A DNA stretch of 32,765 nt from Candidatus Bipolaricaulota bacterium (GTDB taxonomy: Bacteria > Bipolaricaulota > Bipolaricaulia > UBA7950 > UBA9294). A program made the translations under genes and the position numbers. The notes under the pieces are model-generated. The model was not told the origin of the DNA. It made no database searches and saw nothing but the letters and a program-made list of their open reading frames with translations. Of this stretch, positions 2-15,600 are shown piece by piece (the first letter of the stretch is position 1; each line of letters begins with the position of its first letter). The stretch spans positions 1 through 32,765 of the forward strand of contig JAYEFP010000111.1 in NCBI GenBank assembly GCA_034715975.1, written 5' to 3'.

Positions 2-262
2 TCTCCGATCATTGTGCAGGCATCATTCACGTTTGCTTTCTGCATAATCGCCGTAGCCTCGCTGGACTTCCTCGGGGTAGGCGTCCCTCCGTATATTCCA
101 AGTTGGGGCGGAATTGTTAGCGAAGGTCGGACATACCTAACGCGTGCTCCATGGATTATGACCTTTCCCGGAATAGCAATCGTCCTAACGACACTCTCGC
201 TCAACCTTGTCGGAGATGCACTGCGTGACGCACTCGACCCGCGGCTGCGGAGGCTCTTGTAG
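2..262 (+). CDS. Peptide/nickel ABC transporter permease (DppC/OppC-like), C-terminal part, truncated by window start
   Basis: Frame open from base 2 (SPIIVQ...). Has FLGVG-PP-SWG, APW...PG and NLVGDALRDALDPR motifs. Visibly paralogous to 4017-4916. Confidence 0.9.
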   Translation, partial: SPIIVQASFTFAFCIIAVASLDFLGVGVPPYIPSWGGIVSEGRTYLTRAPWIMTFPGIAIVLTTLSLNLVGDALRDALDPRLRRLL

Positions 263-409
263 CAGATCGTCTTGACCAGATAGAACCAGCTTTTCTTAAT
301 TGCACAAAGTCGGAAATGCTGACTAAAGAGTAGATCATTGGTAGTCACGGAAAAGCGGATCTGTCGAGAGGGAGGCTCTTTCCTAACGAGGTGTCTTGTG
401 CCCGGCGGG

Positions 410-438
410 TTGCCAACCGACACTCGTAATGCTATCAT
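410..438 (+). promoter_or_regulatory. Putative sigma70 promoter of the GntR/FadR gene
   Basis: TTGCCA (410-415), 17-nt spacer, TG-n-TATCAT extended -10 (430-438). Confidence 0.6.
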
Positions 439-481
439 ACAGCTTGACAAGATGACAGATCAAGCGAAGAGAAAAAGCTCG

Positions 482-1189
482 ATGGCCTTTGAGAAGGTGC
501 GGCCGCGCAAGGTCTCTGCGATCGCGGCGCAGCAGCTCATTTCCGCGATCAAGGACGGGATGTTCCCTGTGGGGAGCAAGCTTCCCTCCGAATCCGAGCT
601 TGGTGAACAGATGGGGGTCAGTCGCCCTTCGATCAGGGAGGCGCTCTCTGCGTTGCAGGCCGTTGGGTTGATCGCTTCTCGGCCCGGAAGCGGAAATTAC
701 GTTCTCAAGGTCCCTTCCTTAGATGAGGAACAGGACGCACCACACCTCATTGAGAACGAGGCTGGGTGCCTGGAAGTGATGGAGGCAAGATCTATCCTCG
801 AACCGCCGGTGGCGGCGTACGTCGCGCGTGAGTACTCATCCACAGAGATAGGGGCTCTCAGGGATACCCTTGTTAAGATGCGAGACGAAGCGCAAAGGGG
901 AGACTTTGCCCCGTACTTTGAGGCCGACAAGGCGTTTCACCGTGGCTTGGTGGACGCTGCACACAACCACCTGATTGCCGAGGCAATTATTCCACTGGTC
1001 GACACGATGGACCAGAAGCTGTATCGGGAGTTTACGCGCCACTACTACTTGAAGAATGTAGCTGATCTGGAGCAGGTCGTTGATGTTCACTGCGCAATCC
1101 TCGATGCCATTGTTGAAGGGAACCCGGAATTAGCGGCGGAGAAGGTGGATGAGCACTGGCGTAGGATGATGGAGATTTGGGAGGCATGA
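482..1189 (+). CDS. FadR-subfamily GntR transcriptional regulator (wHTH + FCD domain)
   Basis: GSKLPSESELGEQMGVSRPSIREAL wHTH and an FCD domain (EARSILE, ADKAFH, AHNHLI, H..I.DAI). Start moved from 338 to ATG 482 (452 also possible) because a promoter lies at 410-438. Confidence 0.92.
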   Translation: MAFEKVRPRKVSAIAAQQLISAIKDGMFPVGSKLPSESELGEQMGVSRPSIREALSALQAVGLIASRPGSGNYVLKVPSLDEEQDAPHLIENEAGCLEVMEARSILEPPVAAYVAREYSSTEIGALRDTLVKMRDEAQRGDFAPYFEADKAFHRGLVDAAHNHLIAEAIIPLVDTMDQKLYREFTRHYYLKNVADLEQVVDVHCAILDAIVEGNPELAAEKVDEHWRRMMEIWEA

Positions 1190-1193
1190 TTTC

Positions 1194-1253
1194 TATACTG
1201 TAATACAAGAGATGACTTTGCGTTACCTTACATAGCGGAGGTGAGACAAGAGA
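1194..1253 (+). promoter_or_regulatory. Putative -10 box with overlapping FadR-type operator upstream of the first dppA
   Basis: TATACT (1194-1199) overlaps the palindrome TGTAATACA (1199-1207). ACAAGAGA occurs twice in this leader. No clear -35. Confidence 0.45.
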
Positions 1254-1298
1254 AACTAGCAAAAATGGGCGCAAAGCACACAAAAAAAGGAGGCACTC

Positions 1299-2900
1299 AT
1301 GAATCGCAGATTGACCGTACGTAGTATTCTCGTAATCTCGTTCCTATTGATCGTTGGAAGCAGTTTGGTCTTGCTCGCTGGCGAAGGCCCACAGTATGGC
1401 GGAACGCTTCGTTGCGCCCTAGCCTCGGAGCCGGGAAAGCTCGACATGCAAATGGACACTGGTGTTGCGGCAAGCATACCGGCGCGGCACATCTTGGAGG
1501 GGCTGTTTGCGTTTGATGGTTCGTATACGCCACAGCCTATGCTGGCTCTCAGTTGGGAACTGGATGAATCAGGGACCGTTGCGATATTCAATCTGAGACG
1601 AGGGGTCCTGTTCCACAATGGCAAAGAGATGAAGGCGGAAGACGTTGTTGCCTCTCTTACCAGGTGGGGCGAGTATGGACTAACGTCGAAGGCGCTGTGG
1701 TCACACATTATCGATGTTGTTGCCCCCGATGAGTACACGGTGCAGCTAACCTTGGATGAGCCGTTCGCTCCCATGACGACATACCTTGGGAACATCTACG
1801 GCGGGCCAAGCATCTATCCGAAGGAGATCATCGAGAACGCCGGCGATCAGCCGCTTGCTCCCGAGAATGTCATCGGTACCGGGCCATACAAGTTCGCTGA
1901 ATGGAAGGCGGGAGACTACATTTTGCTTGAACGTTTCGCTGGTTATTCCAGCTCTCCAGCTGTGGCGAGCGGTTTTGCTGGGGAGAAGGTCGCCTACTTT
2001 GACAAGCTGCAGTTCTTCTTCGTTTCTGAAGACAATGCGCGGCTTATTGGGATCCAGTCCGGGACGTATGACTATGTGGCCAACATCCCCAACGACCTGT
2101 ATGCAAACGTGAAAGGGGACGCGAACATCGTTCCGATTATCACCGATCACCCTCCGATCTACCCGATCGCGCTGATCAACAACAGGAACAGCCTGATTGC
2201 GGACAACTACAAGCTGAAGCAGGCGATCATCACTGCTCTCGACTTCAACGCCATCATGCTCGCCGGATATGGGGATACTACCTTCTGGAGCCTGAATGCA
2301 AGCTACTTTGCCCCGGGAATCAGATGGTATACGGAAGACGCGAGTGCCGGGCTGTACAACGCCAACGACCCTGCCAAAGCCTGGCAGATGGCGCTCGATG
2401 CCGGCTACAACAACGAACCGATAAGGATCATTGTTGCGCAGGACATGACCTCCCAGTACAACCAAGCGCTTGTTATGACTGACGAGCTGAAGAACGCCGG
2501 ATTCACCGTCGACCTACAGGTCTACGACAAGGCGACCTTCTTCTCCGTGCGTAACAGCAAGAGTGATCCGGACAATCCGCCTTGGGAGATTGCATTCTCC
2601 TTCTACAGCACGACTCCGGACCCGTCGCTCGTGTTGATGCTTAATCCGAGCTACGCGGGTTGGTGGGACACACCCGAGATCCAGACGCTGCGTGGTGAGC
2701 TCAACAAGATCACCGATTTTGATGCACGCTACGCGAAGTGGGAGCAGATCATGGATCTGTGGTACCAGCAGATCCCGGCGATCAAGTTTGGAGATGCGTA
2801 TCAGCTCCATATGATCCGCACCGAGATTGGTGGCGGATACGGCACAGAGGCCAACCCGCCCATGCTGTCGCCCTACTTCTGGAATTCGTGGAAGAAGTAG
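1299..2900 (+). CDS. ABC transporter substrate-binding protein, family 5 (DppA/OppA-like)
   Basis: Signal peptide, PQYGGTL, LRRGVLFHNGKEMKAEDV, IGTGPYKF. RBS AAGGAGG. Confidence 0.93.
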   Translation: MNRRLTVRSILVISFLLIVGSSLVLLAGEGPQYGGTLRCALASEPGKLDMQMDTGVAASIPARHILEGLFAFDGSYTPQPMLALSWELDESGTVAIFNLRRGVLFHNGKEMKAEDVVASLTRWGEYGLTSKALWSHIIDVVAPDEYTVQLTLDEPFAPMTTYLGNIYGGPSIYPKEIIENAGDQPLAPENVIGTGPYKFAEWKAGDYILLERFAGYSSSPAVASGFAGEKVAYFDKLQFFFVSEDNARLIGIQSGTYDYVANIPNDLYANVKGDANIVPIITDHPPIYPIALINNRNSLIADNYKLKQAIITALDFNAIMLAGYGDTTFWSLNASYFAPGIRWYTEDASAGLYNANDPAKAWQMALDAGYNNEPIRIIVAQDMTSQYNQALVMTDELKNAGFTVDLQVYDKATFFSVRNSKSDPDNPPWEIAFSFYSTTPDPSLVLMLNPSYAGWWDTPEIQTLRGELNKITDFDARYAKWEQIMDLWYQQIPAIKFGDAYQLHMIRTEIGGGYGTEANPPMLSPYFWNSWKK

Positions 2901-2920
2901 CCGGAAATACAAATACGTGT

Positions 2921-2948
2921 CTCCTCGGCTGCCTACGCGGCCGGGGAG
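2921..2948 (+). other. GC-rich intergenic stem-loop after the SBP gene (mRNA stabiliser or partial terminator)
   Basis: CTCCTCGGCTGC-CTAC-GCGGCCGGGGAG, with no strong U-tract. Confidence 0.6.
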
Positions 2949-3053
2949 GCTGTTTAGTTAGTGATACAATAATATTAGGTAAAGCCTCATGTGAGGGCAT
3001 GTCAGCGTGAACGCGGAGTCATGTGGTAGTCAGTATGGAGGGCGAACAATAGA

Positions 3054-4001
3054 ATGTTAGCATTCGTTATCCGGCGTGGTTTAGGCATGCTGATAAGCAT
3101 TCTGTTAGTGATTGCCATCACGTTCATTCTGATGCAGCTCATTCCTGGAGACCCGGCGGCAGTCATGCTGGGATCGAACGCTACCCCAGAGCAGATCGAG
3201 CAGCTTCGCGTGAGCTGGGGGCTCGATCAGCCGATGTTGGTCCAGTTCTATCGCTACTTCGTCAACTTTCTGCATGGGAACCTGGGACAGTCCTTGTTCT
3301 ATCAACGGCCGGTGTTGCAGATAATAGGCCAGCGCGCTGAGACGAGCATGTTCTTGGGAATAATAGCGTTGCTCGTGGTCGTTGGTGTGGGCATCCCCGC
3401 GGGCGTGATATCTTCCCTCAAGCAGAATAGTTTGACGGATAACGCGTTACTCCTTGTCGCACTTGCCGGTGCATCGATTCCGAGCTTCTGGTTGGGACTA
3501 ATGCTGATGGTTCTCGTGGCAGGAAAGTGGCATTTCCTTCCGAGTTCCGGGTTTACGTCTGTACTGCAGACCGGGAATCTGGCCAACCTGAAGAATCTCA
3601 TCCTTCCCGCACTATCGCTTGGGTTTGTGAACGCTGCTCTCGTGGCGCGCACTGCCCGTTCGAGTATGCTCGACGTACTGCGTGCTGACTATATCACCAC
3701 CGCTAAGGCCAAGGGCCTTGCCGAACGTGTGGTCATTATCAAGCACGCCCTGCGCAACGCCTCCATCCCGATCATTACGGTGATCTCATTTACATTTGCG
3801 TCGTTGGTCTCCGGCGCGGTTGTAACAGAGAATGTGTTTGCTCTACCGGGTGTGGGGAGCCTGATTGTGCAGTCGGTGTTGAAGCGTGATTATCCCGTCA
3901 TTCAGGGGATCATGATGGTTGTAGCTGTCCTGTATGTATTGATTAATTTTGCAACGGACCTGACGTACGCCTCACTCGATCCGCGTATCCGCTATCACTA
4001 G
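3054..4001 (+). CDS. ABC transporter permease (DppB/OppB-like)
   Basis: PGDPA, GLDQP, EAA-loop region DYITTAKAKGL, VVTENVFALPGVG, RDYPVIQG, LDPRIR. Confidence 0.93.
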   Translation: MLAFVIRRGLGMLISILLVIAITFILMQLIPGDPAAVMLGSNATPEQIEQLRVSWGLDQPMLVQFYRYFVNFLHGNLGQSLFYQRPVLQIIGQRAETSMFLGIIALLVVVGVGIPAGVISSLKQNSLTDNALLLVALAGASIPSFWLGLMLMVLVAGKWHFLPSSGFTSVLQTGNLANLKNLILPALSLGFVNAALVARTARSSMLDVLRADYITTAKAKGLAERVVIIKHALRNASIPIITVISFTFASLVSGAVVTENVFALPGVGSLIVQSVLKRDYPVIQGIMMVVAVLYVLINFATDLTYASLDPRIRYH

Positions 4002-4016
4002 AGGAAAGGAGAAGAC

Positions 4017-4916
4017 TTGCCGACCACTGACCGCAGTTTAGAAGCGCTGATGAACAAGCCGTCCATCGCCAGGAGGATGCTTGGCGACACGCTCAAGTTC
4101 ATCACCAAGCGCAAGACGACGCTCTCAGCGGTGTTGATCCTTGTTGCGTTGCTGTTCATCGCTGCGTTTGGGCCGCTCATCGCGCCCTACGGCGCGAACA
4201 CGCTGAACCTCTCGGATCGACTGCAGGGGCCGAATTCCACTCACCTGTTGGGGACGGACAACTTTGGCCGCGATGTCCTCAGTCGTGCACTCTCCGGAAC
4301 CCGGGTCACGCTTCTACTGGGGCTGTCGATATCGGGGTTCGCTCTCATTCTTGGGTTGCCGATCGGCATGTTGTGCGGCTTCTACGACCGTTTTGGCATG
4401 GTCGTGATGCGCGTAGTCGACGCGATGATGGCCTTCCCCGCTATTATTCTCGCCCTGGCGTTAATGGCCATCTTCGGTAAGCCAGGGATCCTCAATGTGA
4501 TCATCGCCGTTGGTATCGTGTGGGCACCGCGGATGGTGCGTGTCGTCTACAGTTCCACACTCTCGTTGCGGGAGAACACGTACGTAGAGGCGGCGCGTGC
4601 GCTGGGAATGCAATCGTTCCGCATTCTTGTGCGTCACATCGCAATCAACCTTCTTTCACCGGTTATCGTGCAGGCGACGTTCACCTTTGCCTTCTCCATC
4701 ATGGAGGTGGCTGCACTCAACTTCCTCGGTGTGGGTATCCCCCCATACATCGCCAGTTGGGGAGGGATGATGAATGAGGGGCGCACCTATATCATCCGTG
4801 CGCCGTGGATCATTCTCTTCCCGGGAGTCTTCTTGGCGACAGCCGTGTTGTCGTTCAATCTATTGGGGGATGCCCTGCGAGACCGGCTGGATCCGAAACT
4901 ACGGAGGATTATGTAA
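4017..4916 (+). CDS. ABC transporter permease (DppC/OppC-like)
   Basis: HLLGTDNFGRD, YVEAARALG, GDALRD.LDP. TTG start after AAAGGAG. Confidence 0.93.
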   Translation: MPTTDRSLEALMNKPSIARRMLGDTLKFITKRKTTLSAVLILVALLFIAAFGPLIAPYGANTLNLSDRLQGPNSTHLLGTDNFGRDVLSRALSGTRVTLLLGLSISGFALILGLPIGMLCGFYDRFGMVVMRVVDAMMAFPAIILALALMAIFGKPGILNVIIAVGIVWAPRMVRVVYSSTLSLRENTYVEAARALGMQSFRILVRHIAINLLSPVIVQATFTFAFSIMEVAALNFLGVGIPPYIASWGGMMNEGRTYIIRAPWIILFPGVFLATAVLSFNLLGDALRDRLDPKLRRIM

Positions 4917-6073
4917 TGATCGTCATTGATGATGCAGTTTATCGTGAAACTATCGCCATACTGGAGAAGCTTGTTGCCATACGCAGCGTCAATCCGCCCG
5001 GCGGTGAAGATGAGATCGCACAGGTGGTCAAGAACTTGCTTTCCAAGAACGGGATCGACTCTACGAGTGTCCCCCTTGCGAAGGGACGAAGCTCTCTTGT
5101 TGCTCGTATCCCCGGCCGCGAGAGCGGATCGGTCGTCCTCTGTGGACACCTGGATACCGTGAACGCTGACGAGGAGAAATGGACGCGCCCTCCATTTGAA
5201 CCGCGAATAGAAGGCGATCGCATGTGGGGATTGGGATCGGCGGACATGAAGAGCGGCGTGGCGACGATCATCGAGATGGCTCTGCTTCTCACCCGTGGCG
5301 ACATGAGACCGAAGAAAGACACTGTCTTTGTGTTTACCGCCGATGAGGAATACGCGTACACGGGTGCTGCATCTGTAGCCAAATCAGGATTGATCGATGA
5401 CGCACAGTTCCTGTTGATCACCGAACCGACCGCAGGGAAGGCCTACTGCGGCCAGAAGGGCGAGCTGTGGGTGGAGGCAAAGTTCACCGGAAGAGCAGCG
5501 CACGGATCGATCCCCGCATCGGGGATCAGCGCGGTTCTTCCGGCGGCGCGTTTCTGCTTGGCCCTTAACCAGCAAGCGAAGGGCTTTGCGGAGTACCCGG
5601 GGCGGGGATGCACGTCGCTTAACATCGGCCAGTTTGACGGCGGCTGGCAAGTGAACATTGTTCCCGACACCGCACGGGTCAAACTCGACATACGTACCGT
5701 TTCGGTGGATGACAAGAAAATGGTCCTAGAACTGATCGAGAAACTGGGCCGCGACGAGGCCGCAAAAGAGGGAGCGCGGTTCGCGATGAATGTGTTTTCC
5801 GACAAGGACCCGATCGTCAGTAATGCCGATAACCAGTACGTCCAGGCTCTCCTGTCCGCTGCGGCGGGAAATGGCAGGTTACAGAAGGTAGAGATCGCCC
5901 CCTATTCGACCGACGCGGTGGAGATTGTCCCTCGCCTTGGCGTACCAGTTGTGATCTACGGGCCGGGAGACATCGTGCAGGCACATCAACCGGACGAATT
6001 CCTCGATCTTTCGTCCCTCAGGGAAGCGCTTGATGTGATAGCGTCGTTTATGAACGGAGCACTGGAGATATGA
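4916..6073 (+). CDS. M20 family metallohydrolase, ArgE/DapE-like deacylase or carbamoylase
   Basis: Metal ligand motifs GHLDTV, GSADMKSG, ADEE, EPT, AHQPDE. Start placed at the TAATG overlap with the dppC stop. Confidence 0.9.
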   Translation: MIVIDDAVYRETIAILEKLVAIRSVNPPGGEDEIAQVVKNLLSKNGIDSTSVPLAKGRSSLVARIPGRESGSVVLCGHLDTVNADEEKWTRPPFEPRIEGDRMWGLGSADMKSGVATIIEMALLLTRGDMRPKKDTVFVFTADEEYAYTGAASVAKSGLIDDAQFLLITEPTAGKAYCGQKGELWVEAKFTGRAAHGSIPASGISAVLPAARFCLALNQQAKGFAEYPGRGCTSLNIGQFDGGWQVNIVPDTARVKLDIRTVSVDDKKMVLELIEKLGRDEAAKEGARFAMNVFSDKDPIVSNADNQYVQALLSAAAGNGRLQKVEIAPYSTDAVEIVPRLGVPVVIYGPGDIVQAHQPDEFLDLSSLREALDVIASFMNGALEI

Positions 6074-6161
6074 ACCTCAAGCAAGATGGGGAAGATGGTC
6101 GAGGAACGATCATCGTGGAACAGAACCAGCAAAATATACAACACTAAAGAAAGGTGATACA

Positions 6162-7115
6162 ATGAGCAACGAAAAGAAAGTCACGGTTATCGCACTGGGT
6201 GGCAACGCCATCCTGCAACCCGGGCAGCGGGGGACATTCGCTGAGCAGATGAAGAACGTCGAGACCACGTGTCATCAGCTGGCGCAGATGGTCGAGTCAG
6301 GGAAGTACAAGATCATCATCACACACGGGAATGGTCCGCAGGTAGGGAACCTCCTGTTGCAGAACGAGACGGCGAAAGACGTCACCGCTCCAATGCCCCT
6401 TTACGTGTGTGGAGCCGAGAGTCAGGGACTGATCGGGTACATGATGCAGCAGACGCTGCACAACTTGCTCGTCGATAAGGACAAGGGAGGAATCCCGATT
6501 GCCACTGTCGTAACGCAAGTCATAGTCGATAAGCAAGACCAGGCCTTCCAGAACCCGACAAAGCCGGTTGGCCCATTCTACTCCGAGGAAGAGGCGAAGA
6601 AGCTGGAGTCGGAGAAGGGATATCACATAAAGGAAGATGCTGGCCGCGGTTGGCGACGCGTTGTTCCATCCCCAGATCCGATTGAGATCTTCGAGAAGGA
6701 AGCCGTGCGCCAGCTCGTCGAGGCTCGCTCGATCGTCATCGCTTCCGGTGGTGGAGGGATTCCGGTCCTCAAGGAAGGAGAGAAGCTAGTTGGTGTCGAT
6801 GCGGTCATCGATAAAGATCTCGCCGGTGAGCAGCTTGCAGTCGATGTTGAGGCGAAGATCTTCCTCATCCTCACGGATGTGGATCAGGTGAAGCTGAACT
6901 ACAAGACACCGGAGGAGAAGGGCCTCTCGCAGATCACCGTCGAAGAAGCGAAGCGGTACCACACAGAGGGTCACTTTGCTAAGGGATCAATGGAGCCGAA
7001 GGTACGGGCGGCAATCAGATTCATTGAGGCCGGCGGAGAGAGGGCGATCATTACGTCGCTTGATAAAGCGGTTGCCGCACTTGAAGGTAAAGCAGGAACA
7101 ACGATAACAAACTAG
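6162..7115 (+). CDS. arcC: Carbamate kinase
   Basis: ALGGNA, THGNGPQVG, PTKPVGPFY, RRVVPSP, GGGGIPV, AVIDKD, GSMEPKV. Confidence 0.96.
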   Translation: MSNEKKVTVIALGGNAILQPGQRGTFAEQMKNVETTCHQLAQMVESGKYKIIITHGNGPQVGNLLLQNETAKDVTAPMPLYVCGAESQGLIGYMMQQTLHNLLVDKDKGGIPIATVVTQVIVDKQDQAFQNPTKPVGPFYSEEEAKKLESEKGYHIKEDAGRGWRRVVPSPDPIEIFEKEAVRQLVEARSIVIASGGGGIPVLKEGEKLVGVDAVIDKDLAGEQLAVDVEAKIFLILTDVDQVKLNYKTPEEKGLSQITVEEAKRYHTEGHFAKGSMEPKVRAAIRFIEAGGERAIITSLDKAVAALEGKAGTTITN

Positions 7116-7121
7116 GCGATG

Positions 7122-7194
7122 GGTGAATAGTAAATGGTGAATGGTAAATGCAGACCGCAGACCCAACGAACCCTATGAACCCAACGAACCCAAT
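7122..7194 (+). repeat. Composite short tandem repeats (7-mers then 9-mers) between arcC and transcarbamylase 1
   Basis: RGTRAAT x4, GCAGACC x2, then ACCCAACGA / ACCCTATGA / ACCCAACGA / ACCCAAT. Confidence 0.8.
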
Positions 7195-7207
7195 TTAGGA
7201 GGTTCAG

Positions 7208-8245
7208 ATGTCCAACACAAGTTTACGAGGAAGGGATTTCCTCACCTGGTTAGATTTTTCGCGCGATGAGATCGAGATGATGCTTGATACGGCACACGAG
7301 TTGAAGCGCAAACAGATTCGCAGGGAGCTGCACCACATCCTGCCGGATCGTACGCTCCACATGCTGTTCTACAACTCCAGCCTGCGCACGCGCAATTCGT
7401 TCGAGGCGGGGATGACGCAGCTCGGCGGACACGCTCACTTCCTGCAGCCAGGAGCGGTGTATACGCCGGCACTCAAGGGAGAGGAGAAAGCGTACTCTAC
7501 CGAGCGCATATCCGATGTAGCGCGTGTCCTCGCTGAGATGGGGGACGCCATCGCTATCCGGATTTACGGCAAGCACACTGGATGGAAGTACGGCAAGGGG
7601 AACCTGATCGTGCGCGAGTTCGCCAAGTGGGCGCGCGTTCCCGTGATCAACATGGAGGATGACATGTACCATCCCTGTCAAGCATTGGCCGATGTGATGA
7701 CGATGCAGGAGAAACTGGGGCATAACCTGCAGGGAAAGAAATTCGTCATGAGCTGGGCCTATTCGGGGTCAGTGGAGAAGCCGCTCTCTGTCCCGCAGAG
7801 CGCGATCATCTCCGCGGCGATGATGGGAATGGACGTAACGCTTGCCCATCCCAAGGGACTCGATCTCGATCCGAACGTGCTTAACGCGACCAACAACCTG
7901 GCCAAGAAGCACGGCGGCGCGTTCAAGATCGTCAACGACATGGACGAGGCGTTCAAGGGCGCGGACGTTGTTTACCCGAAGGCGTGGACCGTCCAGCCGA
8001 CTGACGGCTCGGGAGTGATGGATCCGGAGAAGGCGAAGGCAATATTCGAGGCGAACAAGAACTGGATCACGACGCAGGAGAAGATGAATCTGACGGACGA
8101 TGCCTACTACATGCATTGTCTCCCTGCTGACCGCGATATGGAGGTCACGGATGATGTCATCGACGGGCCGAATTCGATCATCATCGAGGAAGCGGCGAAC
8201 CGTCTGCACGGACAAAAAGGGATGATGGCCACAATCATGGCCTAG
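7208..8245 (+). CDS. Knotted-type transcarbamylase 1 (YgeW / N-acylornithine carbamoyltransferase-like), substrate unknown
   Basis: SSLRTR, HPCQ and HCLPADR carbamoyl-phosphate motifs. WAYSGSVEKPLSVPQ and VYPKAW resemble YgeW. The OTCase DxxxSMG motif is absent. Confidence 0.88.
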   Translation: MSNTSLRGRDFLTWLDFSRDEIEMMLDTAHELKRKQIRRELHHILPDRTLHMLFYNSSLRTRNSFEAGMTQLGGHAHFLQPGAVYTPALKGEEKAYSTERISDVARVLAEMGDAIAIRIYGKHTGWKYGKGNLIVREFAKWARVPVINMEDDMYHPCQALADVMTMQEKLGHNLQGKKFVMSWAYSGSVEKPLSVPQSAIISAAMMGMDVTLAHPKGLDLDPNVLNATNNLAKKHGGAFKIVNDMDEAFKGADVVYPKAWTVQPTDGSGVMDPEKAKAIFEANKNWITTQEKMNLTDDAYYMHCLPADRDMEVTDDVIDGPNSIIIEEAANRLHGQKGMMATIMA

Positions 8246-8270
8246 TCGTTCTCTGACGAAGGAGGATTAT

Positions 8271-9296
8271 ATGAGTTGGTTTGACCTGAAAGGGCGCAGT
8301 TTAGTTGGAGAGCTCGATTGGACGCGCGAAGAGTACGATCTGGCGATGAAGCTTACCGACCAGATGAAAGGCCTATACTATAGCCGCAGCCCGCATCCGT
8401 ACCTAGAGTACAAGACGTTTGCGATGATGTTCTTCTCTGGATCGACACGGACGCGCATGTCGTTTGAGACCGCGATGACGCAGCTTGGTGGACATTCACA
8501 ATTCCTTAACCCGAGCACGATGCGCCTGTCTCTCGAAGACAAGCCTGGCGCCGGCGAGACGGTGAAGGACACGGCCAAGGCGATGTCCCGCTTCTGTGAT
8601 GGCATCGGTATCCGTCTTCTCGACGACCAGATCAAGTACTACGGTCACGGTAACGAGGTCTTGCGCAAGTTTGAAGAACAAGCCGATGTGCCGATCATCA
8701 ACATGGCGTCGGACATCAACCACCCGTGCCAGTCGCTGACCGACATCTACACGATGCACGAGAAACTGCAAGGTGATGTGAAGGGAAAGAAGATCGTTAT
8801 CACCTGGGCATACACGCCGTGGATTCGCGGCCGCTGCTCGGTGCAGGGGACAGCCCTCATCTCGTCGTTGTACGGGATGGATGTTGTCGTTGCTAACCCT
8901 CCCGAGTTTGACCTTGATCCAAACGTGATGCAGCAGTGCCGCGACGAGGCGAGCAAGTCCGGAGGGACGTTTGAGATCGTGCACGACATGGACAAAGCCC
9001 TCGAAGGTGCGACAGTCGTCTTCCCTCGCAACTGGTTCACCGGACAGCGCTACGACATCGGCAAGGAAGAGGAGCTGAAGCTTGCACAGAAGTATCAGGA
9101 CTGGTGTTACACTGCCGATAGGCAGAAGAAGCTCACCAACCCTGGTCACCTGCTGCAGTGCATGCCGATCGACCGTGGGAACGAGGCCGACCCCGAAGTG
9201 TGCGACAACGACCTGTCCTGGATCTACGATCAGGCAGAGAACCGCTTGCACACCCAGAAGGCGATCCTTACACTCACCATGGGAGGCAGGCTCTAG
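8271..9296 (+). CDS. Knotted-type transcarbamylase 2, divergent, substrate unknown
   Basis: GSTRTR, HPCQ, QAENRLH. Has TWAYTPWIRGRCSV, VFPRNW and QCMP in place of HCLP. No SMG motif. Confidence 0.85.
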   Translation: MSWFDLKGRSLVGELDWTREEYDLAMKLTDQMKGLYYSRSPHPYLEYKTFAMMFFSGSTRTRMSFETAMTQLGGHSQFLNPSTMRLSLEDKPGAGETVKDTAKAMSRFCDGIGIRLLDDQIKYYGHGNEVLRKFEEQADVPIINMASDINHPCQSLTDIYTMHEKLQGDVKGKKIVITWAYTPWIRGRCSVQGTALISSLYGMDVVVANPPEFDLDPNVMQQCRDEASKSGGTFEIVHDMDKALEGATVVFPRNWFTGQRYDIGKEEELKLAQKYQDWCYTADRQKKLTNPGHLLQCMPIDRGNEADPEVCDNDLSWIYDQAENRLHTQKAILTLTMGGRL

Positions 9297-9324
9297 GGGT
9301 ATAACCCTGATATTTCAGATAAGA

Positions 9325-9359
9325 TGGGGGCAGCCTCCGTTTCAGGTGTGCTGCCCCCA
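9325..9359 (+). other. Intergenic stem-loop between transcarbamylase 2 and the Mo subunit
   Basis: TGGGGGCAGC (9325-9334) pairs perfectly with GCTGCCCCCA (9350-9359). Confidence 0.6.
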
Positions 9360-9380
9360 ATTCATAGGGAGAGGAGAACG

Positions 9381-11678
9381 ATGAACGACGGTAGACGGGG
9401 TAACACCAAGAATAAAGGTTTGCCCCCAGGTGAAATGATCGGCGCACCCGTCCTTCGGCCCGATGCAATCGACAAGGTGCGCGGCGAGGCGAAATACGTT
9501 GGAGACCTTGTCTTCTCCGGCATGCTTCACGCTCGCGTCATAAGAAGTACCATGCCGCATGCGCGACTACGCGGAGTTGACCTGTCGAGTGTGGAGAAAG
9601 ATCCTTCCGTCGTTTGCACTGTTACGGCGGATGAGGTTCCAGGCGAGAACATCGTGCACGTCGTCTACGACGATCAACCGGCCCTGGCGAAAGAAATAGT
9701 GCGCTACATCGGCGAACCGATCGCCCTTGTAGCGGCAAGTGATCGCCTCGGAGCGGAGCGTGCGGCAAAGTTGGCTGTGATCGATTACGAGCCGCTACCC
9801 ATTGTCTCTGACCCGATTGTTGCACTTTCGGATGACGCTCCGGCGGTCGCCGTACCTGAGGTTGTGGAGGAGGGAAAGAACGTATTCAATCACATGCGCC
9901 TGCGCAAAGGAGATACAGAAGATGGCTTTGCCCAAGCGGACGTGATCGTTGAAGGCGAGTATCGCACCGGTTATCAAGAACACGCGTATCTCGAGACGCA
10001 GGGGGCGATTGCCGTCCCCGACGAGAACGGCTCGATGACGATCTACGGCTCGATGCAGTGCCCGTTCTACGTTCAGGGAGCCGTTGCGCGTGTCCTCGGC
10101 CTTCCGCTTGCCAAGGTGCGCGTGGTGCAAACCACGACCGGCGGCGCGTTCGGAGGTAAGGAAGATGTGCCATCGCTCGTCTCGTCGCTTGCCGCTCTCT
10201 TGGCGTGGAAGGCGCGGAAGCCGGTGAAGCTCATCTACGATCGCAGCGAGGACATCCTCACGTCGAGCAAGCGACACCCAGCTATTGTCCACTACAAGAG
10301 CGGGGCGAAGAGAGATGGCACGATCACCGCGATCGAAGCTGACTTTGTGTACAACGCGGGCGCTTATCAGACCCTGTCATCGGCGGTCCTCTGGCGCGGC
10401 CTGATGCATATTGCCGGGCCGTACCGCATCCCGAACGTCAAGGTTGACGGATACTCCGTTGCCACAAACACTGTTCCCTGCGGCGCATTCCGCGGGTTCG
10501 GGAGCCCCCAAGTAATATTCGCTCACGAGTCACAGATGGATAAGCTCGCCGACAAGCTGGGGATCGATCGCTTGGAGATGCGCCGCAGAAACGTGTTGCG
10601 AGTGGGGGACAAGACGAGCACGAACCAGTTACTGGAGGAGAGCGTCGGGGTACTGGAGACGATCGATAAAGCGGGTGAGATGGCCCATTGGCAGGAGAGG
10701 CTCTCCGGGATCGATGCGTTCAACGTTGCTTCTGAGGACCGCAAGCGTGGGATAGGGATCTCGACGATCACCTACGGTGTTGGCCTCGGCGGCAAGGCTC
10801 CGTTCCTGGACAAGGCGGGCGCGTACATGAAGCTGGAAGCCGATGGCTCAGTTGCCTTCTCCGTGGGCACGGTGGAGATGGGGCAGGGGCTGATCACCGC
10901 ACTGACCCAGATCGCCTCGGAGGCGCTACAGGTACCCGTGGAGAGGATCCACATGGCACAGGTCGACTCATCGCGCGTTCCCGACTCCGGCCCGACCGTT
11001 GCCTCGCGCGGAACGATGATAAGCGGGCTGGCTGTCGTTGATGCGGCGAGGAAACTGCGCGAGAGGATCGTCGGTGTTGCCACTGATCTCGGAATCTCCG
11101 AAGAGGATATCTCAGGCGAAATGCCTAAGATCGCGGAAACTTTCTGGCTTAGCAACCTTGACCCAGCGGTAGAAGGATGGAGCAAGACTGCTCCCGTTGA
11201 CTGGGACGCAGAGACCGGCCTGGGAAACGCGTACATGGTCTATGCCTACGCCACACACATCGCGGAGGTGGAGATCGACATGGCGACCGGGGAGGTCTCA
11301 GTGGAGGAATTTGTTGCCGTGCACGATTCCGGGAAGATCGTCAACCGCCAACTCGCTTCCGGCCAGGTAGAGGGTGGGATAGCGCAGGGCCTCGGCTATG
11401 CGCTGATGGAAGAGATTCCGCAGAAGGATGGAAAGCTGCTGACGAGCGGGTTCACCACCTACCGCATTCCCACAATCAGGGACGTGGCACCCAACACCAA
11501 AGTTGGCTTTGTCGAGGCAGTCTTCTCCTACGGTCCATATGGGGCAAAGGGCTTGGGAGAAGTCCCGCTCATGGCCTCCCACACCGCCGTCTCTCGCGCA
11601 GTTGCACACGCACTGAAGAGAGACGTCAACAGCTACCCGCTCTCACCCGATCGGGTGAAGGAGATTGCGAAACGCTAA
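9381..11678 (+). CDS. xdhA: Xanthine dehydrogenase family molybdopterin-binding (large) subunit
   Basis: QEHAYLE, GGAFGGKE, AFRGFG, EMGQG, GQVEGG, AKGLGE. Start moved to ATG 9381 behind RBS GAGGAG. Confidence 0.9.
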   Translation: MNDGRRGNTKNKGLPPGEMIGAPVLRPDAIDKVRGEAKYVGDLVFSGMLHARVIRSTMPHARLRGVDLSSVEKDPSVVCTVTADEVPGENIVHVVYDDQPALAKEIVRYIGEPIALVAASDRLGAERAAKLAVIDYEPLPIVSDPIVALSDDAPAVAVPEVVEEGKNVFNHMRLRKGDTEDGFAQADVIVEGEYRTGYQEHAYLETQGAIAVPDENGSMTIYGSMQCPFYVQGAVARVLGLPLAKVRVVQTTTGGAFGGKEDVPSLVSSLAALLAWKARKPVKLIYDRSEDILTSSKRHPAIVHYKSGAKRDGTITAIEADFVYNAGAYQTLSSAVLWRGLMHIAGPYRIPNVKVDGYSVATNTVPCGAFRGFGSPQVIFAHESQMDKLADKLGIDRLEMRRRNVLRVGDKTSTNQLLEESVGVLETIDKAGEMAHWQERLSGIDAFNVASEDRKRGIGISTITYGVGLGGKAPFLDKAGAYMKLEADGSVAFSVGTVEMGQGLITALTQIASEALQVPVERIHMAQVDSSRVPDSGPTVASRGTMISGLAVVDAARKLRERIVGVATDLGISEEDISGEMPKIAETFWLSNLDPAVEGWSKTAPVDWDAETGLGNAYMVYAYATHIAEVEIDMATGEVSVEEFVAVHDSGKIVNRQLASGQVEGGIAQGLGYALMEEIPQKDGKLLTSGFTTYRIPTIRDVAPNTKVGFVEAVFSYGPYGAKGLGEVPLMASHTAVSRAVAHALKRDVNSYPLSPDRVKEIAKR

Positions 11679-12222: not shown

Positions 12223-12696
12223 ATGTCGGAGGTTGCCAAAGCGATCATCAGTGCGGGCATTACGTCGTCGATGCTTGCCGTAGCGCTTGCATTCCTCCTC
12301 AAGAAGTGGCTCGCCGCGCGTATCGAGAAGTCCATCGAGTATGCCTACAACGTGCGCCTTGAGCGCATTCGCGAGGACATAGCGGTTAAGAACCGCGCGG
12401 CACTCGTGGCCGATCTGCTGTCCGAGTGGCTCAGCCGGCCCAAGGACTCGACAAGATTGAACCGGCTCACGTTTGAGGCCTATCTGTGGCTGCCCTCCGA
12501 CATTGCAGACGACTTGAGTCGTCGGCTTGCCAACCAGCCCGATGCACCCGACGTCCGCACACTTTTGGGACAAGTCCGGAAACACCTTCTGGGCGTGGGT
12601 GACAGTTTCGATCCCCAGAAGATCAACATCTTCCCCCCGCCATGGCCAAACAAGAACCAAATATATGGCCAACAACCACCTGCCCGCGACAAGTAA
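12223..12696 (+). CDS. Hypothetical protein with N-terminal TM helix and coiled coil; probable integron-cassette ORF
   Basis: RBS AGGAGG. Hydrophobic N-terminus (ITSSMLAVALAFLL). The 3' end overlaps an attC site. Confidence 0.8.
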   Translation: MSEVAKAIISAGITSSMLAVALAFLLKKWLAARIEKSIEYAYNVRLERIREDIAVKNRAALVADLLSEWLSRPKDSTRLNRLTFEAYLWLPSDIADDLSRRLANQPDAPDVRTLLGQVRKHLLGVGDSFDPQKINIFPPPWPNKNQIYGQQPPARDK

Positions 12697-12838: not shown

Positions 12839-13629
12839 CTTGTACAACGTTAGCGAGTTGGCACGTCCACACGAAAAGGCTTTGAGATGTGGGGCATGCG
12901 GAAACCTCGTGGCAAGCTACGGGGTTTCCAACCCACAGAGATTGAATAATCTGCCGCCGGCGGGTTGCCCAAGGCTTACTGACACCTACGGCGAGGACTC
13001 CTTCTTCCGTGTAACCCAACACTGCCACAAACTTCTGACAGGGATAGCGAGGCGGCTCTGTGGGTACAGGGATCCACGAAGCACTGGAGAACAATCCAGC
13101 AACGCCAAGAAACTCTTCTTGCTAAGATCAAGGCAGAGATCGCCGCGCTGAAGAACAGAGAGGAACGGTATCTCGTGGCCGCTCAACGAAACGCCGAGGA
13201 GGATGAACAGATGGGACGACGACTCGTTGCTCTGCTCTTGATTCCTGGGATTGGTCCGATTACTGCGCTCACCCTACTGGCACTGTTCCGTAAGTATCCG
13301 GGGGCCATACGCAGCCAGATCGTTGCACTCGCGGGCCTCGATCCAATCCAGTTTCAGTCGGGAACATCAGTACATGGAAAGACGCGGATTAGCAAGCGAG
13401 GAAACCGGGAACTGAGGAAGCGTTTGTATCAAGCAACGTTGTCGGCTGCTCGCTACAACCCCAGTGTGAAAGCCCTTCACCAACGGCTGAGGGGGCAGGG
13501 GAAACCGGACAAGGTGGCTCGAATCGCTGCAGCAAGAAAGCTCTTACTGATTGCACATGCCATCTACAAGAGCGGTGAAGAATTCCGCTCTCCTACCAAG
13601 GAGGTGACTTGACATTCAATACAGCATCT
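12839..13629 (+). mobile_element. IS110-family element, internally deleted (left boundary tentative)
   Basis: Right end TTGACAttcaatACAGCAT-CT directly after the transposase stop. Candidate left end CT-TGTACAAC. Structured non-coding region at about 12890-12970. Confidence 0.65.
13079..13612 (+). pseudogene. IS110 transposase/recombinase, C-terminal fragment
   Basis: IPGIGPITA, AGLDP..FQSGTS..GKTRISKRGN, A.ARKLL (Transposase_20-type domain). N-terminal DEDD/RuvC domain missing. Probable frameshift near 13105. Confidence 0.88.
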
Positions 13630-13740: not shown

Positions 13741-14601
13741 TTACCTCCCGTGAGTGGTGCGCGGGTCGATGATATCACGGATCCCATCTCCCAACATGTT
13801 AAAAGATAATACAGTGATAAGGATAGCCGCTCCAGAGAAGAGTGAGATCCAAGAAGCGTTGGTCAGGTAGTCCATCCCCTCGCGAATGATGCCGCCCCAG
13901 GTGGGGGTTGGCGGTGGAACGCCCAATCCGATAAAACTCAGGTTGGCCTCGATGCGAATCGCGGTGGCGGTCCACAGGGTTGCCATCACCAATACCTCCC
14001 CCATAACGTTCGGTAAGGCATGTCGGAAGATCACCCGCAGATCGCTGAATCCAAGGGCACGTGCAGCAGTTATATAGTCCTGTTCCTTAATAGCTAGTGT
14101 TGGTGCGTGGACAATTCTGACAAAGCGAGGGGCCATGATGACCCCAATAGCGATGATCAACTTTATCATCCCCGAACCGAGGACGGCCATCACCATCAAC
14201 CCCATGATCAGGTTGGGAAACGACATGAGAACGTCGACCGTTCGCATGATCACGTTCTCTACCGTTCCCCCCTTTATGCCGGCGATGATCCCCAGGCTTG
14301 TTCCAATGACCATTCCGATCAGCACCGAGGAAATCCCCACGATCAGTGAGACTCTCGCGCCGTAGATTACCCGGCTTAGGATATCACGTCCGAAGTTGTC
14401 CGTCCCCAAAAGGTGCCCTTGTTGGGGGGAGAGCAACCGGTGATAGACATCCTGGATCAATGGATCGTACGGGGCAATCACGGGGGCGAGGATCGCCACC
14501 AGGATTACGATCAACGCGATCACGGCCCCAGCAAAGGCGGTCTTGTTTCTGCAGAAGGTTCGCCACAATCGCCGGACCTCACCTATTCTCGTTTCAGTCA
14601 T
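13741..14601 (-). CDS. ABC transporter permease (DppC/OppC-like)
   Basis: HLLGTDNFGRD, YITAARALG, GDGIRDIIDP. Start placed at ATG 14601, overlapping the dppB stop. Confidence 0.92.
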   Translation of the reverse strand: MTETRIGEVRRLWRTFCRNKTAFAGAVIALIVILVAILAPVIAPYDPLIQDVYHRLLSPQQGHLLGTDNFGRDILSRVIYGARVSLIVGISSVLIGMVIGTSLGIIAGIKGGTVENVIMRTVDVLMSFPNLIMGLMVMAVLGSGMIKLIIAIGVIMAPRFVRIVHAPTLAIKEQDYITAARALGFSDLRVIFRHALPNVMGEVLVMATLWTATAIRIEANLSFIGLGVPPPTPTWGGIIREGMDYLTNASWISLFSGAAILITVLSFNMLGDGIRDIIDPRTTHGR

Positions 14602-15535
14602 AACGAATCCTTGGATCGACAATGCCATAAGCCAGGTCAGTGAACAAGTTAATAAAAACGACTATCGAACTGAAGATAACCATAATAGATTGTAGCATTA
14701 TGTAGTCCCGTTGTTTCATTGCCCCGACTAGCATCTTCCCTAACCCAGGACGGGAAAAGACGACCTCAGTCATTACCGAGCTTCCAATAAGAACGATGGA
14801 GAACATCCCGACAACAGAGAGGATCGGTAAAAGAGCGTTTCGCAAGACATGTTTGTATACGACGATCCGTTCACGAAGTCCTTTAGCGCGCGCGGTACGA
14901 ACGTAGTCCTCATTTAGGATGTCGAGCATCGACGACCGTGTCATACGCGTTACGTAGGACATCATGATTAATGCCAGAGTAAGCGCCGGCAGGAACAGGT
15001 AATACAGAGTTTCCCCGATATTGCTCAAATCACCTCCCCCAACTACCGGGAAGACCCCCAGTTTGATGGGAAACAAGAGCAGCAGCATGATCCCCAAATA
15101 GAAGGCGGGGACAGAGAGCCCCGTAAGCGAGAAGACACGTCCCATATAATCAACCACTGAGTTTCTCTTAAGTGCTGTGAGGATACCGAGAGGAACCCCT
15201 AGAATCGAACCGAGGATGATGCCACTTATTGTCAACTCGAGAGTGTAGGGAAGGACACTGGCAATCTGTGTCGCGACCGGCTTGCTTGTGATCAAAGACC
15301 GGCCCAGATCCCCATGGAGGAGGCCACCAAGGAATCGGAAGTACTGTACATAGAGTGGGGCGTTCAACCCCATCTTCTCGCGCAGGGCTTCCACTGCTTC
15401 CTTGGACGCATAATCGCCAAGAGCAGCAACCGCAGGATCACCCGGGGCGACCCGTACCAGCAGGAACACAAGCGTTAGAACAGCAAGCAGAATAGGAATA
15501 CAAAGCAAAACTCGCCGGACAAGATACCCAGTCAT
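14594..15535 (-). CDS. ABC transporter permease (DppB/OppB-like)
   Basis: PGDPA, DYVRTARAKGL, TEVVFSRPGLG, RDY, VDPRIRY. Confidence 0.93.
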   Translation of the reverse strand: MTGYLVRRVLLCIPILLAVLTLVFLLVRVAPGDPAVAALGDYASKEAVEALREKMGLNAPLYVQYFRFLGGLLHGDLGRSLITSKPVATQIASVLPYTLELTISGIILGSILGVPLGILTALKRNSVVDYMGRVFSLTGLSVPAFYLGIMLLLLFPIKLGVFPVVGGGDLSNIGETLYYLFLPALTLALIMMSYVTRMTRSSMLDILNEDYVRTARAKGLRERIVVYKHVLRNALLPILSVVGMFSIVLIGSSVMTEVVFSRPGLGKMLVGAMKQRDYIMLQSIMVIFSSIVVFINLFTDLAYGIVDPRIRYD

Positions 15536-15557
15536 AGCTTTTCTCCTCGATAAAAGC

Positions 15558-15586
15558 GCTGCGGGCCCTATTTAAGAGCCCGCAGC
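15558..15586 (-). other. Intergenic stem-loop after the second SBP gene
   Basis: GCTGCGGGC (15558-15566) pairs with GCCCGCAGC (15578-15586). Same position relative to the SBP gene as the 2921-2948 hairpin. Confidence 0.6.
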
Positions 15587-15600
15587 ATATGCATCCGGCG

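Follow-up and report, generated by a model that had tools for sequence, protein, structure and literature searches.

Gene content and order of the locus

The window analyzed here, a stretch of 32,765 nucleotides, is the entire 32.8-kb contig C111 of a metagenome-assembled genome (MAG; 1.8 Mb, 283 contigs, 92% complete) of a Candidatus Bipolaricaulota bacterium. Nine genes at positions 338-11678 encode, among others, a carbamate kinase (CK), two carbamoyltransferases (TC1 and TC2) and the large subunit of a molybdenum (Mo) hydroxylase. Judging from gene context, not from enzymology, we consider it fairly probable that these genes belong to a variant of the reductive uric-acid (2,8-dioxopurine/yanthine) pathway and make up its lower part, where energy is conserved and the two carbamoyltransferases harvest both ureido groups.

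In the following, G000 is the genome of the window, other G numbers are related genomes, L numbers are fetched loci and C numbers are contigs. The labels f1-f11 denote families among 184 genomes of the phylum Bipolaricaulota, which were compared by six-frame search. Genes in the fetched loci were called using a codon-usage caller trained on the window.

A preliminary description of this DNA had proposed a co-directional run gntR-dppABC-M20-arcC-TC1-TC2-xdhA. Pfam and NCBIfam profile scores confirmed all nine genes at this place, on the + strand and in this order. Together with a stem-loop, the features of the run are as follows.

338-1189 (+): open reading frame (ORF) of a GntR/FCD-family transcriptional regulator, likely start ATG at 482 or 452; Pfam GntR 63.6 bits, FCD 86.4 bits
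1299-2900 (+): family-5 (peptide/nickel/opine type) ABC substrate-binding protein; SBP_bac_5 202.6 bits, below all NCBIfam cut-offs
2919-2950 (+): strong stem-loop, 14 pairs, 10 of them G-C, directly 3' of the binding-protein gene and before the permease gene
3054-4001 (+): ABC permease, DppB/OppB type; BPD_transp_1 132.5 bits, with BPD_transp_1_N
4017-4916 (+): ABC permease, DppC/OppC type; BPD_transp_1 98.7 bits, with OppC_N
4916-6073 (+): M20 metallohydrolase, ArgE/DapE family; Peptidase_M20 and M20_dimer, TIGR01910 222.1 bits (cut-off 217.6)
6162-7115 (+): CK; TIGR00746 447.9 bits (cut-off 358.25)
7208-8245 (+): carbamoyltransferase TC1; NF003384, the model for N-acetylornithine carbamoyltransferase (AOTCase), 317.6 bits (cut-off 288)
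8271-9296 (+): divergent carbamoyltransferase TC2; below all NCBIfam cut-offs
9324-11678 (+), alternative start 9381: XdhA-like Mo hydroxylase large subunit; Ald_Xan_dh_C, MoCoBD_1, MoCoBD_2

The intergenic gaps along the run are 110, 153, 15, -1, 88, 92, 25 and 27 nt, and the genes of TC1 and TC2 are each preceded by an AGGAGG ribosome-binding site. A domain scan of the ORFs revealed no ABC ATPase gene in the window, and the window holds no gene for an Fe-S or FAD subunit. Further, as the preliminary description had noted, no arginine or agmatine deiminase domain was present in any scanned ORF of the window; the whole genome was not searched for one. The stem-loop at 2919-2950 may be an attenuator between the binding-protein and permease genes, which we take as a lead only; promoter and terminator sites in the region were no commoner than in shuffled sequences (terminator-like sites, 12 versus 10.3 +/- 2.9).

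Conservation of the module within Bipolaricaulota

The arrangement recurs across Bipolaricaulota and in other phyla, far more than chance would produce. Full-length orthologues of TC2 (at least 52% identity) were found in families f1, f2, f3, f6, f7 and f10. By hand count, the best E-value for TC2 was below 1e-100 in 123 of the 184 genomes, usually with the TC1 paralogue adjoining. Twenty loci were fetched, 19 of which were picked for a TC2 match on a long contig and one (G093) for a TC1-like match only, and the following counts are conditional on this choice. CK, TC1 and TC2 were consecutive in 18 loci, the GntR gene lay directly upstream of CK in 16, and XdhA directly followed TC2 in nine and was located elsewhere within 20 kb in five more. 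The conserved core is thus GntR-CK-TC1-TC2(-XdhA). The preliminary description had suggested a survey of neighborhoods for the tandem transferase pair; the pair turned out to be conserved across Bipolaricaulota and in at least seven other named lineages.

SsnA, discussed below, gave a match at E<=1e-100 in 128/184 genomes of the phylum, in none of the 18 genomes of f8 and in none of the nine of f11. In f8 and f11, the best TC2 matches reached only ~1e-32 to 1e-45, and we therefore conclude that these SsnA-less families possess no TC2 orthologue, a joint absence that speaks for the urate pathway.

A gene for a small protein related to the GxxExxY family was observed between TC1 and TC2 in G132 (L036, 8952-9416).

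Other genes of the urate pathway in the same genome and in linked loci

In the available text of two recent descriptions of the known route, urate is converted into 2,8-dioxopurine by XdhD, reduced by YgfK and ring-opened by SsnA and HyuA to 2,3-diureidopropionate (PMC12507026; bioRxiv 10.1101/2025.04.24.650524). YgeW then uses phosphate to release one ureido group as carbamoyl phosphate, from which YqeA forms ATP, YgeY hydrolyzes the other ureido group, and YgeX converts 2,3-diaminopropionate into pyruvate (same sources). The text available of the former paper treats SsnA as the marker of the urate route, presents hydrolytic (UacY) and phosphorolytic (YgeW) cleavage as alternative energy strategies and reports an F420 enzyme in Chloroflexota clusters (PMC12507026). 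As far as its accessible part goes, a published neighborhood survey scores 'YgeW' simply as PF00185. The available text of the two papers, supplements aside, makes no mention of an arrangement with two carbamoyltransferases, and a full-text search found no publication tying Bipolaricaulota or Acetothermia to carbamate kinase, SsnA or purine degradation.

The preliminary description had advised looking upstream of the window for HyuA, SsnA, YgfK and DpaL. The first three, HyuA as a HyuA-type hydantoinase, were present on other contigs of G000, and DpaL was not. Contig C92 encodes SsnA (398-1699; 491.5 bits, cut-off 444) and YgfK (991.5 bits, cut-off 835.3), and also a GxxExxY protein, a ThrC-like pyridoxal-phosphate (PLP) enzyme, a 2Fe-2S subunit, a MocA-like nucleotidyltransferase and a FAD subunit, after which the contig ends. 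The closed genome G006 possesses the same SsnA operon, at a distance of 530 kb from CK-TC1-TC2. Contig C15 carries at its end a gene for a PLP enzyme, here called c4, and the N-terminal part of a hydantoinase, and C101 a second partial hydantoinase. The hydantoinase orthologue in L036 scored 409.3 bits with TIGR02033 (cut-off 393.25), and a hydantoinase passing this model was found in three f1 loci.

The Mo enzymes of the genome were compared with the XdhD-family model (cut-off 1101.9). Contig C224 encodes a FAD subunit and an Fe-S/Mo enzyme that is 41.6% identical to E. coli XdhD and scored 687 bits, compared with 266 bits for the XdhA-like protein of the window. The latter is 30% identical to E. 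coli XdhA and 28% to XdhD, and its best NCBIfam model was PucD (554 bits, cut-off 784). Thus, an Xdh-type subunit does lie in the window, as previously claimed, but by sequence the best counterpart of XdhD in G000 is the C224 enzyme. On C92, the SsnA operon contains orphan Fe-S and FAD genes, to which the partnerless Mo gene following TC2 is complementary.

In other genomes, the module and the remaining genes are physically linked. In G095, the genes for a luciferase-like (LLM, F420-type) enzyme, SsnA (527.6 bits, cut-off 444), the ThrC-like enzyme, c4, CK, TC1 and TC2 follow one another on one strand. The module is also contiguous with SsnA or reductase genes in L130, L133, L134, L142, L144 and L153 (Chloroflexia, Gemmatimonadota and others). 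The Chloroflexia loci L134 and L144 contain the contiguous series TC1-TC2-CK-FAD-FeS-XdhA-YgfK.

The c4 protein (~490 aa) is encoded beside the module in 14 of 21 clustered sources, that is, the window and the 20 loci. Its scores to CysK/CBS models were weak (84 bits, cut-off 351), as was that to its best solved structure (68 bits), and a search of a protein atlas returned only unnamed PLP clusters. Other genes adjoin c4 in L040, L043, L085, L086, L179 and L181, namely those for an XdhC-type Mo-cofactor insertion protein, an NTPase_1/DUF2478 protein and a PNPOx-like (F420/FMN-type) protein, the last two being fused in some c4-adjacent loci. The GxxExxY protein of C92 (5138-5509, L186), encoded between YgfK and the ThrC-like gene, scored 157 bits with TIGR04256 (cut-off 35).

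Two candidate assignments were rejected or judged unlikely. An identification of c4 as DpaL was discarded, since no DpaL model matched it and its blastp alignment to E. coli YgeX spans 44 residues. The ThrC-like gene of C92 is unlikely to encode a housekeeping threonine synthase; a second ThrC homologue (33% identical) is present on C14, and the gene travels with the module in 12 of 53 loci outside the phylum. Searches of G000 for other components of the known route gave no DpaL/YgeX (best score 51.9 bits, cut-off 276), no YgeY match at E<=1e-80 and no luciferase-like enzyme, and neither carbamoyltransferase of the window passed the YgeW cut-off of 453.

These genes also bear on a different assignment, in which the system would degrade pyrimidines or hydantoins: a dihydropyrimidinase would open the ring, and TC1 and TC2 would phosphorolyze N-carbamoyl-beta-alanine and N-carbamoyl-beta-aminoisobutyrate. 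The amidohydrolase passes a model named for dihydropyrimidinase/D-hydantoinase (409 versus 393 bits), and YgfK-type reductases are related to pyrimidine reductases, by analogy with UacX/PydA, in the available text of PMC12507026; both points tell against uric acid as the substrate. However, SsnA, the published marker of the urate route, passes its own cut-off, genes for Xdh-type Mo enzymes and for maturation of the Mo cofactor are found with the module, and in G005 and G013 a cassette with an M20 enzyme 48-55% identical to E. coli YgeY takes the place of TC1 and TC2. We therefore regard pyrimidine breakdown as highly improbable.

Substitution of TC1-TC2 by a YgeY-TC' cassette

The main argument for a joint role of TC1 and TC2 in both decarbamoylations comes from this substitution. 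G005 and G013 (at least 96% complete) possess GntR-CK-YgeY-TC', whereas their genus-mate G006 possesses GntR-CK-TC1-TC2. The M20 protein of G005 and G013 is a YgeY orthologue by score as well (515-523 bits, cut-off 321), and TC' is a carbamoyltransferase 47% identical to TC1 and 37% identical to YgeW. Because the YgeW-like TC' together with YgeY occupies the same slot as TC1 and TC2, the latter two would together perform both decarbamoylations. The substitution thus suggests that TC1 and TC2 do what YgeW and YgeY do, yielding two carbamoyl phosphates per urate.

One of the two alternatives in the preliminary description was a variant purine route in which a di-ureido intermediate such as 2,3-diureidopropionate yields up both of its carbamoyl groups. 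This alternative is the best supported, by SsnA, YgfK and hydantoinase in the same genome, by the conserved transferase pair and by the substitution within a genus. Its description as a new ATP-yielding pathway would hold for the two-transferase variant; the kind of system is not new, the pathway having been published in 2025.

Properties of the carbamoyltransferases and the carbamate kinase

A single CK gene was found in G000 (one match in the genome search), and most of the other genomes listed likewise gave one match. TC1 and TC2 are 39% identical to each other. With the YgeW model, TC1 scored 175 bits and TC2 123 bits, and with the AOTCase model TC2 scored 226.2 bits, under the cut-off that TC1 passes.

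In an alignment of sequences from Bipolaricaulota and beyond (65 TC1-type, 43 TC2-type), the carbamoyl-phosphate (CP)-binding residues (SxRTR, the Arg of the 100's region, HPCQ and NRLH) were invariant or nearly so in both types; in the 65 members of the TC1 family, the CP-binding motifs were invariant. Among 121 TC2 sequences (the query and 120 orthologue matches), SxRTR was conserved in 118, HPCQ in all 121 and NRLH in 119. The fourth motif varied, being QCMP in 74, HCMP in 38 and HVMP in six. In the TC2 of the window, QCMP replaces HCLP and Arg253 replaces the Lys of the 240's loop, while TC1 keeps HCLP. As QCMP occurs in 74 of the 121 sequences, the Gln in the window is a trait of the lineage and not damage. 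Residues invariant specifically in TC2 are Arg85, Arg186, Ser190 and Arg253, the last in place of Lys.

The best solved relative of TC1 is the AOTCase of Xanthomonas campestris (229.7 bits). In the available text of PMC4581275, Glu92, Asn185 and Lys302 are residues that define AOTCase. At these positions TC1 has Thr98, a deletion after Leu193, and Glu312, and it has Thr at the substrate-binding Trp77; 98% of the 65 family members retain Thr98, and 100% retain Glu312. The loops KPLSVPQ and YPKAW of TC1 match those of E. coli YgeW (KPLSVPQ and YPKSW) and of TC'. Further, TC1 has a longer, invariant 80's loop, YTPALxGxExAYSTER. At the ornithine-binding loop, TC1 reads YPKAWT and TC2 FPRNWFTGQ, and the DxxxSMG motif of ornithine carbamoyltransferase (OTCase) was found in neither protein in the alignment. 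The preliminary description had named as findings against a new pathway that both enzymes group with anabolic AOTCase or N-succinylornithine carbamoyltransferase (SOTCase) or are plain OTCases, or that no other genome shares the gene combination. Neither was observed: TC1 scores as an AOTCase with the profile model but lacks Glu92, Asn185 and Lys302, both enzymes lack DxxxSMG, and the combination recurs in other genomes.

Both enzymes had been called knotted. Each carries the extended 120's loop, TC1 has the proline loop KPLSVPQ, and the predicted model of TC2 (pLDDT 95.9) was nearest to knotted AOTCase structures (TM 0.88, ranks 1-10), followed by Pyrococcus furiosus OTCase (0.84). The insertion of TC2 contains one Pro only, and the two enzymes are candidates for a knotted fold.

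A tree was built from 93 rows, comprising the locus proteins and, of the representatives, those among P0123-P0199 with a length of 295-400 aa, to the exclusion of P0200-P0272 and of any outside this length range; the named references were E. coli YgeW, ArgI and PyrB only. TC1, TC2 and TC' formed three separate clades (supports 98, 100 and 98, respectively), all outside the ArgI/ArgF-like group. YgeW stood loosely beside TC', in a weakly supported group with TC' and TC1 (86-91), and the deeper branches were weak. The TC2 family is narrow, with 167 representatives at E<=1e-30 among 1.84 billion. The cluster of P0146 has members from Anaerolineales and Chloroflexota, and that of P0126 from Thermococcus.

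The divergence of TC2 raises the question of whether it acts on its own. TC1 and TC2 might form one hetero-oligomer, or TC2 might be a regulatory or substrate-channeling paralogue, so that a single carbamoyl phosphate would be obtained per substrate. Active sites of carbamoyltransferases are shared between subunits. The genes of TC1 and TC2 adjoin each other throughout, in an unvarying order (of the 47 loci outside the phylum that offer room for TC2, 23 have it immediately downstream of TC1), and TC2 deviates from the HxLP motif, with QCMP and Arg for Lys. However, its CP-binding residues are kept, as the above counts indicate, and in G129 TC2 is encoded together with XdhA and well away from CK and TC1. 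Further, the invariant residues of TC2 suggest a substrate site of its own. We thus consider a single-product complex of this kind quite unlikely.

Occurrence outside the phylum

A profile scan for TC1-type proteins, with one genome per species, yielded 80 loci, which comprised 53 of group B and 27 of group A. Neighboring genes were scored by tblastn (E<=1e-15, at least 50% coverage) with queries from E. coli and G000, and many loci end at contig ends. The proteins of group B are 52-64% identical to TC1 and come from Chloroflexota, Eisenbacteria, Caldisericota, Atribacterota, Gemmatimonadota, Thorarchaeota and other archaea. TC2 was present in 33 of the 53 loci, CK in 27, the ThrC-like enzyme in 12, c4 in 11 and M20 in one; a marker of the purine route (Xdh, SsnA, YgfK or LLM) was present in 18. 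No arginine gene, YgeW or YgeX was found in any of the 53 fetched flanks.

The 27 loci of group A (L098-L124; MAGs of Chloroflexota, Actinomycetota, Deltaproteobacteria and Spirochaetes) hold the closest outgroup of TC1 and are nearest to a Chloroflexota cluster that JGI names N-acetylornithine carbamoyltransferase. Their neighbors include CK (15/27), an amidohydrolase (14/27), a PyrB-like transferase (12/27), M20 (7/27) and an arginine gene (1/27). Group A is probably another CK-linked ureide-catabolic cluster with a misnamed transferase.

Importer, M20 hydrolase and flanking genes

The start codon of M20 (ATG at 4916, with a ribosome-binding site) overlaps the stop codon of the second permease (TAATG), an arrangement of translational coupling. 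M20 belongs to the ArgE/DapE type, as previously described; with the YgeY model NF009555 it scored 135.6 bits (cut-off 321), and its identity to E. coli YgeY is 24%. Importer and M20 occur together in the window and in three of the 20 fetched related loci (G036, G070 and G160). Orthologues of the binding protein adjoining the transferase module are 59-81% identical in these three genomes and 66% identical in G091. The importer and the ArgE/DapE-type M20 are therefore accessory to the conserved core, and the earlier view of them as parts of the core system was not borne out, since 17 of the 20 loci do not have them; M20 is also not of the YgeY type.

The second alternative of the preliminary description starts from this importer. 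An imported carbamoylated or N-acylated compound would be stripped of its acyl or peptidyl group by M20 and used by TC1, TC2 and CK for ATP formation, with purines not the main input. The coupling of M20 to the permease gene fits this, as does the same set of binding protein and permeases beside the module in G036, G070, G160 and G091. Outside the phylum, DppB/C-type permeases were located near TC1 in five of the 53 loci, mostly in Thorarchaeota with no Xdh or SsnA in the fetched DNA. The GntR-CK-TC1-TC2-XdhA core is kept, however, in the 17 related loci that have neither importer nor M20, and several phyla have the module in an unbroken run with SsnA, YgfK and Xdh genes. As the main function, such scavenging is in our estimate unlikely; as a second input, it is compatible with the urate pathway.

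The window contains further transport genes. At 2-262 (+), it begins with the C-terminal part of a third DppC-type permease, which shares 66% identity with the protein of 4017-4916, so that the regulator is immediately preceded by a further ABC system of the peptide type. At 13741-17223 (-), two permeases are encoded with another family-5 binding protein (27% identity to the first), again without ATPase genes. Further, the remnant of an IS110-family transposase is located 3' of XdhA (13175-13612, +), consisting of the C-terminal domain only (profile positions 218-342 of 343); an ORF on C15 (523-1482) encodes a protein 36% identical to it over 118 residues. The ORF at 12223-12696, between XdhA and the IS110 remnant, gave no family match.

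Supply of carbamoyl phosphate

The large subunit of carbamoyl-phosphate synthetase (CPSase) was not found in G000. By family, it was detected in 2/73 genomes of f1, 2/50 of f3, 0/4 of f10, 0/4 of f2 and 0/3 of f9, and in 14/18 of f8 and 8/9 of f11. The CPSase-rich families f8 and f11 have neither SsnA nor TC1/TC2, and f6 and f7 hold both CPSase and the module. G000 possesses PyrB/PyrC-like genes and ArgG-ArgH; ArgB and ArgC were not found in it with E. coli queries. CK may therefore also operate in the direction of synthesis, or biosynthesis may draw on carbamoyl phosphate from purines.

These findings could be taken to mean that the module is anabolic: CK would make carbamoyl phosphate out of carbamate, as proposed for Pyrococcus, TC1 would be a true AOTCase and TC2 another biosynthetic transferase, and the product would be arginine or a ureido metabolite. 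The absence of CPSase from G000 and its rarity in f1 and f3, alongside the PyrB/PyrC-like and ArgG/ArgH genes that are nevertheless present, fit such a supply, and an ArgE-family M20 adjoins. Further, TC1 passes the equivalog cut-off for AOTCase, and its nearest solved relative is an AOTCase, which also counts against a catabolic assignment. However, the residues of TC1 at the AOTCase-defining positions differ, as described above, the module is linked to SsnA, YgfK and Xdh genes, and arginine genes are as scarce in the flanks of both outside groups as the counts above indicate. Likewise, tblastn at the same thresholds revealed no ArgB/C/H/G/F-like genes near the module in Bipolaricaulota loci. 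The lack of CPSase does not make TC1 an arginine enzyme, because sister genomes carry a separate ArgF-like gene (~304 aa), ArgB and ArgC were not found, and f6 and f7 have CPSase together with the module. An anabolic module therefore appears very unlikely.

A broader reading combines catabolic and anabolic use. TC1-TC2-CK might be an old, widely shared module for harvesting carbamoyl phosphate (in Bipolaricaulota, Chloroflexota, Eisenbacteria, Caldisericota, Atribacterota, Gemmatimonadota and Asgard archaea) that in most Bipolaricaulota also took over the anabolic supply, CPSase having been lost and PyrB/ArgF being fed from purine ureido groups or by CK in reverse. We put this forward tentatively, as a rather doubtful proposal. 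If it were true, nucleotide salvage, ATP gain and the synthesis of pyrimidines and arginine would hang on one operon.

Proposed pathway and its significance

In the proposed variant of the uric-acid pathway, Mo hydroxylases, YgfK and SsnA encoded on other contigs would reduce and open the purine, and the hydantoinase would form 2,3-diureidopropionate. TC1, with its YgeW-like substrate loops, and TC2 would each phosphorolyze one ureido group to carbamoyl phosphate, and from each of these products CK would form ATP along with NH3 and CO2. Two ATP would be gained per urate, compared with one in E. coli, where YgeW acts on one ureido group and YgeY hydrolyzes the other. The resulting 2,3-diaminopropionate may be converted into pyruvate by c4, by the ThrC-like enzyme or by both, fold-type-II PLP enzymes in the place of YgeX. 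The XdhA-like subunit, probably paired with the SsnA operon's orphan Fe-S and FAD subunits, would hydroxylate a purine that feeds the route, and GntR would be the local regulator. The ABC importer and the coupled M20 would form an accessory input module, probably for an N-acylated or ureido compound. We infer every substrate and the yield of two ATP from the gene content, conservation and linkage that we observed and from the intact CP-binding residues.

Several observations weigh against this pathway. YgeY exceeded its cut-off in 14/184 genomes, six of which are f1 genomes that also possess TC2. G127 and G142 (L179 and L180) carry CK-TC1-YgeY-TC'-TC2, and G164 (L182) carries YgeY-TC' on another contig. 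The two pairs therefore are not strict alternatives and may act on different substrates. CK occurs throughout the phylum, in 161/184 genomes and including families without SsnA or TC1/TC2, and is thus not specific to the urate route. As hardly any genome with the module has CPSase, CK could run in the synthetic direction. In G000, the parts of the pathway lie on separate contigs of a 283-contig, 92%-complete MAG, and their linkage is not visible in this genome. Outside the phylum, 20 of the 53 loci of group B had no TC2 and 35 no purine marker in the fetched DNA, many of them being cut by contig ends.

If both ureido groups are phosphorolyzed, the yield of two ATP per urate would double the substrate-level yield of purine fermentation for organisms that live on necromass at the energy limit, as reported for Bipolaricaulota, Anaerolineae, Atribacterota and Asgard archaea. 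Two carbamoyltransferase specificities and two families of PLP enzymes would each gain a concrete candidate substrate. Further, the AOTCase model of NCBI gives a wrong name to a catabolic enzyme in many MAGs, which distorts calls of arginine biosynthesis in metabolic reconstructions. The available text of the pathway papers discusses hydrolytic versus phosphorolytic cleavage as an energy trade-off for engineered uricolytic probiotics, and the two-transferase version would be a natural design for such strains.

Comparison with known systems

The system resembles the urate cluster of E. coli and Clostridium in several respects. SsnA and YgfK of G000 exceed the family cut-offs, an Xdh-type Mo enzyme is accompanied by XdhC-like and MocA-like maturation genes, and ureido phosphorolysis would likewise be coupled to carbamate kinase. 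Identities to the E. coli counterparts are 47% for CK and YqeA, 38% for the hydantoinase and HyuA, 40% for YgfK and 37% for SsnA. In contrast to that cluster, YgeW, YgeY and YgeX were not found in G000, and two AOTCase-like transferases, 34% identical to YgeW, are present. The PLP enzymes c4 (CysK/CBS-like, with a low score) and ThrC-like stand in the place of YgeX. Instead of YgeV there is a GntR regulator, and instead of the NCS2 permeases an ABC importer of the peptide type. At least two separate loci share the genes, with 530 kb between them in the closed genome G006. In some relatives, an F420 luciferase-like reductase is encoded instead of YgfK.

Features in common with the AOTCase of X. 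campestris (PDB 3kzc) are the extended 120's loop, a KPL-containing loop and Lys252, which TC1 keeps. Among the differences, TC2 has Arg at Lys252 and TC1 has no Glu92, Asn185, Lys302 or Trp77. Unlike AOTCase, the two transferases are encoded in a catabolic context beside CK, with no arginine biosynthesis cluster. As for YgeW (YTCase), it likewise adjoins CK, and TC1 and TC' share its KPLSVPQ and YPK(A/S)W loops; however, YgeW is ~50 residues longer, and the 80's loop of TC1 is longer than that of YgeW.

Finally, the proposed route differs from the arginine deiminase pathway in the absence of a deiminase domain from the window, in carbamoyltransferases without DxxxSMG and in having two transferases per kinase. 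It shares with that pathway substrate-level phosphorylation from a ureido group, by a carbamoyltransferase working in reverse followed by carbamate kinase.

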